64,000 nt of DNA from Escherichia coli (GTDB taxonomy: Bacteria; Pseudomonadota; Gammaproteobacteria; Enterobacterales; Enterobacteriaceae). Shown here in pieces: positions 58,656 through 64,000 of the stretch. Position numbers and translations under genes: made by a program. Under the pieces are notes generated by a model that saw only the letters and a program-made list of their open reading frames with translations, was not told where the DNA came from and did no database searches. The DNA is taken from NCBI RefSeq assembly GCF_013122565.1, contig NZ_CP053258.1. The stretch is one strand, 5' to 3'. Position 1 is the stretch's first letter. Each line of letters starts with the position of its first letter.

Positions 58656-59002
58656 AAATTCTCCTGTAAAACGCGGAATATACCGTACCTCTTAGCGGGG
58701 AAAAACAGGGTTATGCGGCAACGTCGAAATTAAATGTGATCTGCCACGCCTTTTATCACAAAAGTGTCTCCGGAAGTACGATGCAAATTTGCCTGGCAAA
58801 ATAAGGATAATCAACATATTACGAATCGCTGCACACCTGTGCTGATGACTACTACGCAGAGAAACAAATGTGCAAGAGAAAGCGCTATTTCTCCCCATGC
58901 AAAGAGTGAAAAATCGCTTTGAAAGGCCCTCATGATGGGGTTATATCAGATCAAGCGGTGAGAAAGCGTATTTGCACAGATGTGCAGAACCAGGAGGCGG
59001 CA

Positions 59003-59950
59003 ATGGAAAACAGTGACGATATCCGTTTGATTGTGAAGATTGCCCAACTCTATTACGAACAGGATATGACGCAGGCGCAAATCGCGCGCGAACTGGGTAT
59101 TTACCGCACCACCATCAGCCGCTTGCTTAAACGAGGCCGCGATCAGGGAATTGTCACCATCGCCATCAACTATGACTACAACGAAAATCTCTGGCTCGAG
59201 CAGCAACTGAAGCAAAAGTTTGGCCTGAAAGACGTTGTGGTGGTGTCGGGAAATGATGAGGATGAAGAGACTCAACTGGCGATGATGGGGTTACACGGCG
59301 CGCAACTGCTGGATCGCTTGCTGGAGCCTGGCGATATTGTCGGTTTTTCCTGGGGTCGCGCGGTGAGCGCACTGGTTGAAAACTTGCCGCAGGCGGGGCA
59401 ATCGCGGCAGTTAATCTGCGTACCAATTATTGGCGGACCGTCCGGTAAACTCGAAAGCCGCTATCACGTAAACACATTAACCTACAGCGCGGCAGCGAAG
59501 CTGAAAGGGGAATCGCATCTCGCGGATTTTCCGGCTCTGCTGGATAACCCATTAATTCGTAATGGGATCATGCAGTCTCAGCACTTTAAAACCATCTCTG
59601 CCTACTGGGATAATCTGGATGTCGCCCTGGTGGGAATTGGCTCACCGGCCATTCGCGACGGCGCTAACTGGCATGCGTTTTATGGTGGTGAAGAGAGTGA
59701 CGACCTGAATGCCCGCCAGGTTGCTGACGATATTTGCTCGCGCTTTTTTGATATTCACGGCGCAATGGTTGAAACGAATATGAGCGAAAAAACACTCTCT
59801 ATCGAAATGAATAAATTAAAGCAGGCGCGGTATTCCATTGGCATTGCCATGAGTGAAGAAAAATACAGCGGAATTGTTGGTGCACTGCGTGGAAAATATA
59901 TTAATTGTCTGGTAACGAATAGCAGCACAGCTGAACTATTACTGAAATAA
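59003..59950 (+). CDS. sorC: SorC-family transcriptional regulator of the sorbose operon
   Basis: ATG at 59003 preceded by aggagg gives 315 aa; N-terminal HTH (DMTQAQIARELGIYRTTISRLL) plus sugar-binding domain. Confidence 0.75.
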   Translation: MENSDDIRLIVKIAQLYYEQDMTQAQIARELGIYRTTISRLLKRGRDQGIVTIAINYDYNENLWLEQQLKQKFGLKDVVVVSGNDEDEETQLAMMGLHGAQLLDRLLEPGDIVGFSWGRAVSALVENLPQAGQSRQLICVPIIGGPSGKLESRYHVNTLTYSAAAKLKGESHLADFPALLDNPLIRNGIMQSQHFKTISAYWDNLDVALVGIGSPAIRDGANWHAFYGGEESDDLNARQVADDICSRFFDIHGAMVETNMSEKTLSIEMNKLKQARYSIGIAMSEEKYSGIVGALRGKYINCLVTNSSTAELLLK

Positions 59951-60019
59951 AAATCTTCCCGATGTTTACCGTAATAAAAATTACGGCGGGTCCCTATTAT
60001 CTAAAATCAGGAGTCTGTT

Positions 60020-60826
60020 ATGCAAACGTGGTTAAATTTGCAGGATAAAATCATTATCGTCACCGGCGGCGCATCCGGTATTGGTCTGGCGATTGTAGAG
60101 GAATTATTATCACAAGGCGCAAACGTACAGATGGTAGATATTCACGGTGGCGATGGTCAATATGAAGGTCATAAAGGCTATCAGTTTTGGCCGACCGATA
60201 TTTCCAGCGCCAAAGAGGTAAATCATACGGTAGCGGAAATTATTCAGCGTTTTGGTCGCATCGACGGTCTGGTCAATAACGCCGGGGTCAATTTCCCGCG
60301 TCTGCTGGTCGATGAGAAAGCGCCTGCCGGGCAGTATGAACTCAACGAAGCTGCATTCGAAAAAATGGTCAATATCAACCAGAAAGGCGTTTTTCTGATG
60401 TCGCAGGCGGTGGCGCGACAGATGGTCAAACAACATGATGGCGTGATTGTGAATGTTTCCTCAGAAAGTGGACTGGAAGGCTCAGAAGGCCAAAGCTGTT
60501 ACGCCGCTACCAAAGCCGCGCTCAATAGCTTCACGCGCTCCTGGTCGAAAGAATTGGGTAAACACGGTATCCGTGTGGTCGGTATCGCGCCCGGGATTCT
60601 GGAAAAAACCGGGCTACGCACGCCGGAATATGAAGAGGCGCTGGCGTGGACGCGCAATATCACCGTCGAGCAGCTGCGTGAAGGCTATACCAAAAACGCC
60701 ATTCCTATTGGGCGCGCCGGAAGATTAGCAGAAGTCGCTGATTTTGTTTGTTATCTGCTGTCTGAACGCGCCAGCTACATCACCGGAGTAACCACTAACA
60801 TTGCGGGCGGCAAAACACGCGGATAA
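60020..60826 (+). CDS. sorD: SDR-family sorbitol/glucitol-6-phosphate dehydrogenase
   Basis: 268 aa; TGGASGIG Rossmann motif and YxxxK catalytic pair (YAATK). Confidence 0.75.
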   Translation: MQTWLNLQDKIIIVTGGASGIGLAIVEELLSQGANVQMVDIHGGDGQYEGHKGYQFWPTDISSAKEVNHTVAEIIQRFGRIDGLVNNAGVNFPRLLVDEKAPAGQYELNEAAFEKMVNINQKGVFLMSQAVARQMVKQHDGVIVNVSSESGLEGSEGQSCYAATKAALNSFTRSWSKELGKHGIRVVGIAPGILEKTGLRTPEYEEALAWTRNITVEQLREGYTKNAIPIGRAGRLAEVADFVCYLLSERASYITGVTTNIAGGKTRG

Positions 60827-60835
60827 GGAGGCTTT

Positions 60836-61802: not shown

Positions 61803-62591
61803 ATGGAAATAAGTACCCTACAAATCATTGCTATATTTCTTTTTTCCTGTATTGCCGGAATGGGCAGTGTGCTGGATGAATTTCAGACTCATCGCCCGTT
61901 AATTGCCTGTACGGTGATTGGTTTAATTCTCGGTGATTTAAAAACCGGAATAATACTCGGTGGTACGCTGGAATTGATAGCTCTCGGCTGGATGAACGTC
62001 GGCGCGGCACAATCTCCGGATTCTGCACTCGCCAGCATAATCTCCGCCATTCTGGTTATCGTTGGTCAGCAAAGCATCGCCACCGGAATCGCCATCGCGT
62101 TGCCTGTGGCTGCGGCAGGCCAGGTGCTGACGGTGTTTGCCCGTACCATCACCGTAGTGTTCCAGCACGCGGCGGATAAAGCAGCGGAAGAAGCACGGTT
62201 TCGCACTCTCGATATTCTGCATGTCTCCGCGCTTGGCGTGCAGGCGCTGCGCGTTGCTATTCCGGCACTGATTGTCTCGCTGTTCGTCAGCGCCGATATG
62301 GTCAGCAATATGTTAAACGCCATTCCCGAATTTGTGACCCGAGGTCTGCAAATTGCTGGCGGTTTTATCGTGGTGGTCGGTTACGCCATGGTGCTACGTA
62401 TGATGGGCGTGAAATATTTGATGCCTTTCGGTTTCCTCGCAGGTGGCTACCTCGATCTCAGTCTGCTGGCGTTCGGTGGCGTCGGCGTGATCATGGCCCT
62501 GGTCTACATCCAGCTAAATCCACAGTGGCGTAAAGCTGAACCTCAACTCCAGGCCACCGCCTCCACCGCCCTTGACCAACTTGACGATTAA
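61803..62591 (+). CDS. sorA: PTS sorbose-specific EIIC component
   Basis: 262-aa membrane protein in the expected operon position. Confidence 0.75.
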   Translation: MEISTLQIIAIFLFSCIAGMGSVLDEFQTHRPLIACTVIGLILGDLKTGIILGGTLELIALGWMNVGAAQSPDSALASIISAILVIVGQQSIATGIAIALPVAAAGQVLTVFARTITVVFQHAADKAAEEARFRTLDILHVSALGVQALRVAIPALIVSLFVSADMVSNMLNAIPEFVTRGLQIAGGFIVVVGYAMVLRMMGVKYLMPFGFLAGGYLDLSLLAFGGVGVIMALVYIQLNPQWRKAEPQLQATASTALDQLDD

Positions 62592-62601
62592 CGGAGCCAT
62601 C

Positions 62602-63426
62602 ATGGAACAGAGAAAAATTACACGCAGCGATCTGGTGAGCATGTTTCTGCGCTCCAACCTGCAACAGGCGTCCTTTAACTTTGAACGTATTCACGGGCTG
62701 GGTTTTTGCTACGACATGATCCCCGCCATCAAGCGACTTTACCCATTAAAAGAGGATCAGGTTGCGGCGCTCAGGCGACACCTGGTGTTCTTTAATACCA
62801 CGCCAGCCGTATGTGGCCCGGTCATCGGCGTCACTGCCGCCATGGAAGAGGCGCGGGCCAACGGCGCGGAAATTGATGACGGTACCATTAACGGCATCAA
62901 AGTCGGCCTGATGGGACCGTTGGCAGGGGTTGGCGATCCACTGGTCTGGGGAACGCTGCGCCCGATTACCGCCGCGCTCGGCGCATCTCTGGCACTTTCT
63001 GGCAACATCCTCGGCCCGCTTTTGTTTTTCTTTATTTTCAATGCGGTGCGTCTGGCGATGAAGTGGTATGGCCTACAGCTCGGCTTTCGCAAAGGGGTGA
63101 ATATCGTCAGCGATATGGGCGGGAATGTGCTGCAAAAACTCACCGAAGGCGCGTCGATTCTCGGACTGTTTGTGATGGGCGTGCTGGTGACCAAATGGAC
63201 GTCAATCAACGTACCGTTGGTGGTTTCACAAACGCATGCCGCCGATGGCTCCACCGTCACCATGACCGTGCAGAACATTCTCGACCAACTTTGCCCTGGT
63301 TTGCTGGCGCTCGGTCTGACGCTACTAATGGTTCGTCTGCTCAACAAAAAAATTAACCCGGTATGGCTGATTTTCGCCCTGTTTGGCTTAGGGATTATCG
63401 GCAATGCGCTGGGCTTCCTGTCCTGA
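62602..63426 (+). CDS. sorM: PTS sorbose-specific EIID component
   Basis: ATG at 62602 preceded by acggag gives 274 aa; membrane protein; the track extension to 62572 overlaps sorA. Confidence 0.75.
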   Translation: MEQRKITRSDLVSMFLRSNLQQASFNFERIHGLGFCYDMIPAIKRLYPLKEDQVAALRRHLVFFNTTPAVCGPVIGVTAAMEEARANGAEIDDGTINGIKVGLMGPLAGVGDPLVWGTLRPITAALGASLALSGNILGPLLFFFIFNAVRLAMKWYGLQLGFRKGVNIVSDMGGNVLQKLTEGASILGLFVMGVLVTKWTSINVPLVVSQTHAADGSTVTMTVQNILDQLCPGLLALGLTLLMVRLLNKKINPVWLIFALFGLGIIGNALGFLS

Positions 63427-63477
63427 TTCTTCGCCCCGGCACGACTGCCGGGGCCATCGCTCAACATGAGGTGGTTT

Positions 63478-64000
63478 ATGAAAACAACAGCTCTGCGTCT
63501 TTATGGTAAACGTGATTTACGCCTGGAAACCTTTGATCTTCCTGAAATGCAGGAGGATGAAATCCTCGCGACGGTGGTCACTGACAGCCTGTGCCTCTCT
63601 TCCTGGAAAGAGGCCAACCTGGGTGAAAACCATAAAAAAGTACCCGACGATGTGGCGACCAACCCCATCATCATCGGCCACGAGTTTTGCGGCGATATTC
63701 TGGCCGTGGGTAAAAAGTGGCAGCACAAATTTCAGCCGGGCCAGCGCTATGTGATTCAGGCCAACCTGCAATTGCCGGATCGCCCGGACTGCCCCGGCTA
63801 CTCCTTCCCGTGGGTGGGCGGTGAAGCCACACATGTGGTTATCCCAAATGAGGTTATGGAACAAGATTGCCTGCTGGCATACGACGGCGAAACCTATTTT
63901 GAAGGCTCGCTGGTTGAACCGCTTTCCTGCGTGATTGGCGCGTTCAACGCCAACTATCATCTTCAGGAAGGTAGTTATAACCACACGATGGGGATTCGCC
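63478..64000 (+). CDS. sorE: sorbose-1-phosphate reductase (Zn-dependent medium-chain dehydrogenase), 5-prime part; runs off the window end
   Basis: ATG at 63478 preceded by gaggtgg; MKTTALRLYGKRDLRLE...GHEFCG zinc-ADH motif; no stop before the window end. Confidence 0.7.
   Translation, partial: MKTTALRLYGKRDLRLETFDLPEMQEDEILATVVTDSLCLSSWKEANLGENHKKVPDDVATNPIIIGHEFCGDILAVGKKWQHKFQPGQRYVIQANLQLPDRPDCPGYSFPWVGGEATHVVIPNEVMEQDCLLAYDGETYFEGSLVEPLSCVIGAFNANYHLQEGSYNHTMGIR

Follow-up and report, generated by a model that had tools for sequence, protein, structure and literature searches.

Organization of the sor locus

We analysed a 64,000-nucleotide stretch of the Escherichia coli contig NZ_CP053258.1 (assembly GCF_013122565.1), hereafter the window, whose right end almost certainly carries a sorCDFBAME operon for L-sorbose utilization. 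A 347-bp noncoding control region begins at position 58656 and is followed by seven codirectional, tightly packed open reading frames (ORFs) on the plus strand (Table 1). The left neighbour, rluF, is conserved beside the sor genes and diverges from sorC. The domains found above curated Pfam and NCBIfam cut-offs are the SorC-type Sugar-bind and helix-turn-helix (HTH) domains, the short-chain dehydrogenase/reductase (SDR) domain, EIIA-man, PTSIIB_sorb, EII-Sor, EIID-AGA, and ADH_N. All four domains of a mannose-family phosphotransferase system (PTS), IIA, IIB, IIC, and IID, are among them, and the phosphorylatable histidines of IIA and IIB are present; the IIC subunit departs from the full-length form, since SorA has 262 residues instead of 265. 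The stop and start codons of sorF and sorB share one nucleotide (TGATG), suggesting translational coupling. Longer ORFs initiated by TTG were rejected for sorC (58919) and sorM (62572): an AGGAGG lies at 58992-58997, the 315-residue SorC aligns over residues 1 to 315 with the Klebsiella pneumoniae SorC structure 2w48, and the ATG starts of both genes fit 2w48, RefSeq, and the ribosome-binding sites.

An earlier note, made from the window sequence, had described a complete mannose-family PTS. The operon as a whole is not complete within the window, which includes only 174 of the 409 sorE codons; the remainder is visible only in L010, a Logan contig (run SRR11451224) that is 100.000% identical to window positions 53680-64000 and reaches 1.8 kb further. 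In L010, sorE is intact (409 amino acids, L010 positions 9799-11028) and is followed by a 381-bp spacer with repetitive extragenic palindromic (REP)-like repeats and then by pepE. The downstream junction, which the note had left for inspection beyond the window, contains no mobility genes. A terminator scan found no convincing terminator after sorE, and an Rfam scan found only the lysine riboswitch of lysC (RF00168, 99.5 bits), located at 55620-55816, upstream of lysC as expected.

Table 1. Genes and candidate regulatory elements of the sor locus (window coordinates)
Feature	Position	Strand	Description
rluF	57783-58655	-	23S rRNA pseudouridine 2604 synthase; left neighbour; NCBIfam NF007784 equivalog, 606 bits; annotated rluF in L001 and K-12
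CRP-like half-site TGTGATC	58735-58741	+	Left part of the conserved block 58735-58764; invariant in the alignment
CACAAAAG	58757-58764	+	Invariant; N15 after TGTGATC
GATAATCA	58806-58813		Conserved
O1, distal palindrome TGCACACCTGTGCT	58830-58843		GCAC-N4-GTGC core invariant; candidate SorC operator
Half-site ACAAATGTGCAA	58864-58875		Right arm of the palindrome plus spacer; CA..TGTGCA invariant
Candidate sor promoter (sigma-70)	58919-58947	+	-35 TTGAAA, 17 bp, -10 TATATC; 9/12 in a relaxed scan
Invariant 15-mer GGTTATATCAGATCA	58939-58953		Holds the candidate -10
O2, perfect palindrome TGCACAGATGTGCA	58973-58986		Starts 30 bp upstream of the sorC ATG; candidate SorC operator
sorC	59003-59950	+	315 aa; SorC-family regulator, HTH plus sugar-phosphate-binding domain; PF04198 (Sugar-bind), 265 bits
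sorD	60020-60826	+	SDR-type D-glucitol-6-phosphate dehydrogenase; NF004817, 501 bits (cut-off 304); TGGASGIG and YAATK intact
sorF	60836-61243	+	EIIA-Sor; TIGR00824, 147 bits; His9 in AHGK motif
sorB	61243-61737	+	EIIB-Sor; TIGR00854; RLIHGQV phosphorylation motif (His14)
sorA	61803-62591	+	EIIC-Sor; 262 aa (usually 265); TIGR00822 above cut-off
sorM	62602-63426	+	EIID-Sor; TIGR00828, 472 bits; protein identical to that of L001 (0 differences)
sorE	63478-64000 (window end)	+	Zn-dependent L-sorbose-1-phosphate reductase; first 174 of 409 codons; ADH_N; GHEFCG

Orthology to characterized L-sorbose operons

SorC aligns with K. pneumoniae SorC (2w48) over 315 of 315 residues (E = 1.8e-182) and also matches 3efb, the structure of a "probable sor-operon regulator" (E = 6.1e-176), whereas the non-Sor family members DeoR and LsrR reach only about 1e-39 or worse. 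SorB matches K. pneumoniae IIB-Sor (1nrz) over residues 1 to 160 with an E value of 5.6e-91, compared with 1.9e-49 for the IIB domain of ManX and 4e-20 for that of Aga. RefSeq gives the name sorE, L-sorbose 1-phosphate reductase, at the same locus in E. coli (98.6% DNA identity), and the 174 SorE residues within the window show no differences from the RefSeq-annotated sorE of the close relative L001. When genes c4981 to c4987 of E. coli CFT073 were cloned in a 2010 study, DH5alpha gained growth on L-sorbose; the CFT073 Sor proteins are 82 to 97% similar to those of Klebsiella, and the operon DNA is 78% identical (PMC2831201). Both cloning primers match here, at window positions 58661-58684 and, just past the sorE stop codon, at L010 positions 11029-11058, so that the functional cloned fragment is an orthologue of the window locus. 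Further evidence on sor in the sequence types ST131, ST648, and ST10, from knock-outs, knock-ins, and multi-omics, came from a study of 2025 (PMC12817954).

The gene order and identities given in the earlier note are borne out by the domains, the matches to 2w48 and 1nrz, and the RefSeq annotation of sorE; the comparison with Klebsiella that it had proposed returned K. pneumoniae SorC and IIB-Sor, and not the proteins of another PTS, as best matches. We therefore assign the region, with little room for doubt, to a chromosomal sorCDFBAME operon orthologous to the characterized operons of K. pneumoniae and of E. coli CFT073, ST131, and ST648. The operon and its patchy distribution in E. coli are already known, and it is an experimentally verified catabolic locus.

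The sor operon of K. pneumoniae was characterized by Sprenger, Wehmeier, Wohrl, and Lengeler between 1984 and 1994; the pathway that follows is cited in PMC2831201 and PMC12817954. The phosphate of phosphoenolpyruvate is passed through enzyme I and HPr to SorF (IIA) and then SorB (IIB) (Sprenger & Lengeler 1984; Wohrl, Wehmeier & Lengeler 1990). L-Sorbose is imported through SorA/SorM (IIC/IID) and arrives as L-sorbose-1-phosphate, which SorE reduces to D-glucitol-6-phosphate; SorD oxidizes the latter to D-fructose-6-phosphate, which enters glycolysis. SorC, the first gene product of the operon, acts as both repressor and activator (Wohrl et al. 1990).

Control region and candidate SorC operators

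The rluF-sorC spacer was aligned across 18 loci from about 8 genera, and the alignment displays sharp invariant islands amid diverged sequence. Two of them, O1 and O2, follow the palindromic pattern TGCACA-NN-TGTGCA. O2 occurs with 0 mismatches at positions -30 to -32 of the sorC ATG in 25 of the 25 loci with upstream DNA, and the palindrome, with up to one mismatch allowed, has only two matches in the 64-kb window, O1 and O2 themselves, where 0.31 would be expected. The arms are invariant and the 2-nucleotide spacer varies, a pattern more in keeping with protein binding than with an RNA hairpin. The full-length frame of the half-site starts at 58861, 31 bp after the start of O1. With the transcription start presumed near 58954, O2 would span about +20 to +33, the half-site would sit near -86, and O1 near -117; O1 and O2 are 143 bp apart. 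Farther upstream, the CRP-like site, putative in function, has 7 of 10 matches to TGTGA-N6-TCACA in a motif scan.

We infer these operators from phylogenetic footprinting and the promoter from a relaxed consensus scan; a search of the open-access literature yielded no account of the SorC operator. SorC-family proteins act as tetramers on operators composed of two palindromic half-operators (PMC11229326), and SorC tetramers may bind the conserved palindromes here. O2, just downstream of the candidate promoter, would serve repression as a roadblock, the upstream O1 and half-site would serve activation, and looping from O2 to O1 might form part of the repression. The predicted positions, O2 downstream and O1 with the half-site upstream, fit the dual role reported for SorC (Wohrl et al. 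1990). Bacillus subtilis DeoR and CggR and E. coli LsrR share the domain organization of SorC and use paired half-operators. The sor palindromes flank the candidate promoter, are 143 bp apart, and are not adjacent, and SorC is reported to be an activator as well as a repressor. That O1, the half-site, and O2 form the SorC operator set behind this dual role, and separately that the SorA deletion described below could have been selected and not be decay, is a tentative proposal to which we give slightly less than even weight.

Strain-specific changes in SorA, SorC, and SorE

The sorA gene carries a 9-bp in-frame deletion, with its junction at 62427-62430, that removes Phe-Phe-Leu from PFFFLGF and turns KYLMPFFFLGFLAGG into KYLMPFGFLAGG. 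All complete E. coli genomes that have this part of the gene (2866 of 2866) encode the long form of SorA, MVLRMMGVKYLMPFFFLGF is invariant in 14 species from 8 genera, and ManY reads PFFYLGF at the same place. The deletion junction has no exact match among about 100,000 species-representative genomes. In an exact look-up, the 262-residue SorA appeared to be "not on record"; this was a false negative, as L010 encodes it. An AlphaFold model of wild-type SorA built on a 9-sequence alignment had a predicted local distance difference test (pLDDT) score of 41.6, unusable for placing the deletion in a helix, and the ManYZ paper gives no helix boundaries for the deleted residues. Judging from the sequence, SorA-dependent transport may be impaired in this strain.

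The remaining differences are spread differently. Compared with L001, the sor genes hold about 75 substitutions and 10 amino-acid changes, 7 of the 10 in SorF, which varies more than any other protein of the operon. Compared with another relative, L006, 96 of 110 coding differences fall at third codon positions, a dominance that points to continued purifying selection. Artificial recoding, for which the strong third-position bias and the few intergenic differences might speak, was rejected: the transition/transversion ratio is about 2.3 to 3, and the natural contig L010 is identical.

No observation speaks against the identity of the operon; several weigh against its presumed function in this strain, its proposed control elements, or its presumed vertical history. 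The SorA deletion falls in a segment that is otherwise invariant in the species and genomes just listed. SorC carries G242D, at a position where 32 other loci have glycine and only assembly L009 shares the aspartate, and SorE carries two changes unique to the strain beyond the window (seen in L010), H222Y and D242G, where the others have H in 19 of 19 and D or E in 19 of 19. The right half of the CRP-like site is poor, a stricter sigma-70 promoter scan of the spacer found no site, and the window ends within sorE. Exchange by homologous recombination through the conserved flanks could also account for the constant insertion site described below.

The operon might accordingly be present yet decaying, with the SorA deletion, possibly in combination with SorC G242D and the SorE changes, making the strain sorbose-negative or slow on this sugar. 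Neither the 2866 complete E. coli genomes that have the gene, nor the 14 other species, nor the species-representative genomes show the deletion, and the lost residues belong to an invariant hydrophobic segment that ManY keeps; there is also a precedent, in that 26 of 26 Shigella strains tested did not use sorbose although Shigella strains carry sor (PMC2831201). However, all seven sor genes remain open, the SorA deletion preserves the frame, unique substitutions occur no more often in the Sor proteins (2 in 1827 amino acids) than in the flanking RluF, YjbD, and PepE (2 in 609 amino acids), and the coding changes lie mainly at third positions, as noted above. In addition, an ST131 sorAM knock-out still grew on sorbose via other PTS transporters (PMC12817954); a dead SorA thus need not abolish the sorbose phenotype, which is not predictable here. 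We consider decay rather unlikely. If the SorA deletion was instead selected, it may have allowed escape from a phage or bacteriocin for which a mannose-family IIC/IID serves as receptor.

Elsewhere, the E. coli assembly L007 (GCA_961209495.1) carries at 8408-8692 a sorB truncated to 94 amino acids, so natural inactivating sor variants do occur.

Distribution and history of the rluF-pepE slot

The sor allele is present in 2872 of 5426 complete E. coli genomes (53%), always on the chromosome, and 2557 of the same genomes have the K-12-type empty site; the locus is essentially bi-allelic, the operon being either present or absent at one fixed position, the rluF-pepE slot. A published survey recorded sor in more than 86% of the genomes of each phylogroup other than A (9.6%) and B1 (12.1%) (PMC12817954). 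The operon is absent from K-12, as the earlier note had stated: K-12 has rluF, a 211-bp spacer, and pepE. In numbers, the note's "subset of E. coli" means 53% of the complete genomes.

The borders of the slot were defined by local alignment of the K-12 rluF-pepE spacer to L001. The 35 bp that precede the rluF start codon (58656-58690) are shared with K-12, homology ends at 58690, the sor-specific sequence begins at 58691, and homology resumes 90 bp upstream of pepE. Between these junctions K-12 has 86 bp, compared with 6308 bp in the window strain (58691 to the window-equivalent position 64998). The 86-bp filler has no homology to the sor segment and was therefore rejected as an obvious deletion scar.

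The locus was then sought outside E. coli with a degenerate SorC N-terminus pattern in about 100,000 species-representative genomes. The pattern was found in 26 species: ten of Citrobacter, five of Klebsiella, four of Escherichia, three of Pseudocitrobacter, and one each of Mangrovibacter, Entomohabitans, Erwinia, Pantoea, Enterobacter, and the metagenome-assembled Enterobacteriaceae UBA3516. The order is sorCDFBAME in every case in which the fetched DNA is long enough to show it. Both flanks (yjbD-rluF and pepE) are seen in Citrobacter and Klebsiella, pepE in Enterobacter, and rluF beside sor in Mangrovibacter, Pseudocitrobacter, and E. whittamii. Sor proteins of other genera are mostly 84 to 96% identical to those of the window (SorF, 74 to 90%), and the flanking RluF, YjbD, and PepE fall in the same range, at 87 to 97%, apart from one partial RluF match. 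The G+C content is 51.2% in the sor region and 50.1% in the rest of the window.

The shared slot in other genera, the flank-like divergence, and the normal G+C content argue for an old locus that was lost toward K-12. On this comparative evidence, the simplest reading is that sor is an ancient, vertically inherited syntenic operon and that the K-12 state would be a loss. The earlier note's "accessory metabolic island" goes too far in view of these three features. Its observation that no mobility genes are visible on the near side extends to both sides, the right one being seen in L010. Horizontal acquisition of an island beside rluF by the progenitor of the sor-positive E. coli, with K-12 keeping the ancestral empty site, would account for the sharp junctions of the presence/absence polymorphism, the unrelated 86 bp in K-12, and the REP-like repeats at the right end. 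However, integrase, transposase, tRNA, and flanking direct repeats are all absent from the sor borders, the G+C content equals that of the rest of the window, the rluF-pepE slot recurs in Citrobacter, Klebsiella, and Enterobacter and the rluF neighbour in Mangrovibacter, Pseudocitrobacter, and E. whittamii, with divergence like that of the flanks, and sor prevails in all phylogroups but two (PMC12817954); acquisition is thus improbable, and vertical inheritance followed by loss remains our preferred reading.

The only sigma-70-like promoter candidate of rluF (58677-58704, minus strand) straddles the left border: its -10 TATATT (58682-58677) lies in the 35 bp shared with K-12, and its -35 lies in sor-specific DNA. 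Because the 58690/58691 junction falls inside this putative promoter, the sor and empty alleles may express rluF differently.

The nearest complete E. coli genome to the sor region has 98.6% DNA identity, and the other parts of the window that were compared have best matches of about 97 to 98.2%, so that the window is 1.4 to 3% diverged from every one of the 5426 complete genomes. Together with the 100% identical natural contig L010, these values point to a real but under-sampled Escherichia lineage.

Comparison with related systems

The K. pneumoniae operon has the same seven genes in the same order, and the window locus is its species-level orthologue; SorF is the most diverged subunit, and SorA of the window is three residues shorter. 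The operons of E. coli CFT073, ST131, and ST648 occupy the same chromosomal slot between rluF and pepE, but the window differs by its 9-bp sorA deletion, which is private, and by SorC G242D, which is rare. The Sor PTS shares its four-domain mannose-family architecture with ManXYZ (cryo-electron microscopy structures 6k1h and 7dyr), and the PFF(Y/F)LGF segment is common to both. Unlike ManX, in which IIA and IIB are fused, the sor operon encodes them as separate proteins; the substrate also differs, and the sor transporter is tied to dedicated catabolic enzymes and to the SorC regulator. SorA matches ManY with an E value of 2e-98, as expected of a paralogous family member.

The generic mannose/fructose/sorbose IIA to IID family models are shared among such systems and cannot by themselves separate substrates. 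It is nonetheless scarcely credible that the cluster only looks like sor and serves another substrate (mannose, fructoselysine/glucoselysine, N-acetylgalactosamine, or glucitol), since SorC and IIB-Sor show orthologue-level identity to those of K. pneumoniae, the Aga and Man equivalog models score far under their cut-offs, the cluster also encodes SorD and SorE, which belong specifically to the sorbose route, and the cloned CFT073 orthologue enables growth on L-sorbose.

Other variable sites in and near the window

Further variable sites were noted outside the operon. The D-xylose/H+ symporter gene xylE is absent at 48444-48448, between malG (47463-48353) and psiE, where 1,792 bp of E. coli GF3-3 (L011 positions 9449-11240; xylE at 9725-11200) are missing cleanly from the window. 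The convergent genes yjbD and rluF meet at 57782/57783 with their stop codons directly adjoining and no spacer between them; K-12 and L001 have there a 132-bp stretch with a G+C-rich inverted repeat. The short allele is also found in GF3-3, L004, L006, L009, and L010; its occurrence in several genomes indicates a natural polymorphism. A 526-residue ORF upstream of malM (38697-40277, minus strand) corresponds to a "SopA family protein" gene in E. coli GF3-3. Finally, the E. coli assemblies L003, L005, and L008 carry between lysC and yjbD a three-gene insert, encoding proteins with Zeta_toxin/AAA_33, RlaP, and Band_7 domains, that is absent from the window and constitutes a second variable spot close to sor.

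Implications

The sor locus of E. coli fits the picture of an old syntenic operon, which would have been lost in K-12 and in lineages of phylogroups A and B1, better than that of an acquired island. The footprint conserved across genera yields concrete candidates for the operators of SorC, after which its regulator family is named, and for the sor promoter, all of them open to testing. The private in-frame deletion in SorA could provide a natural test of the role of an invariant transporter segment.

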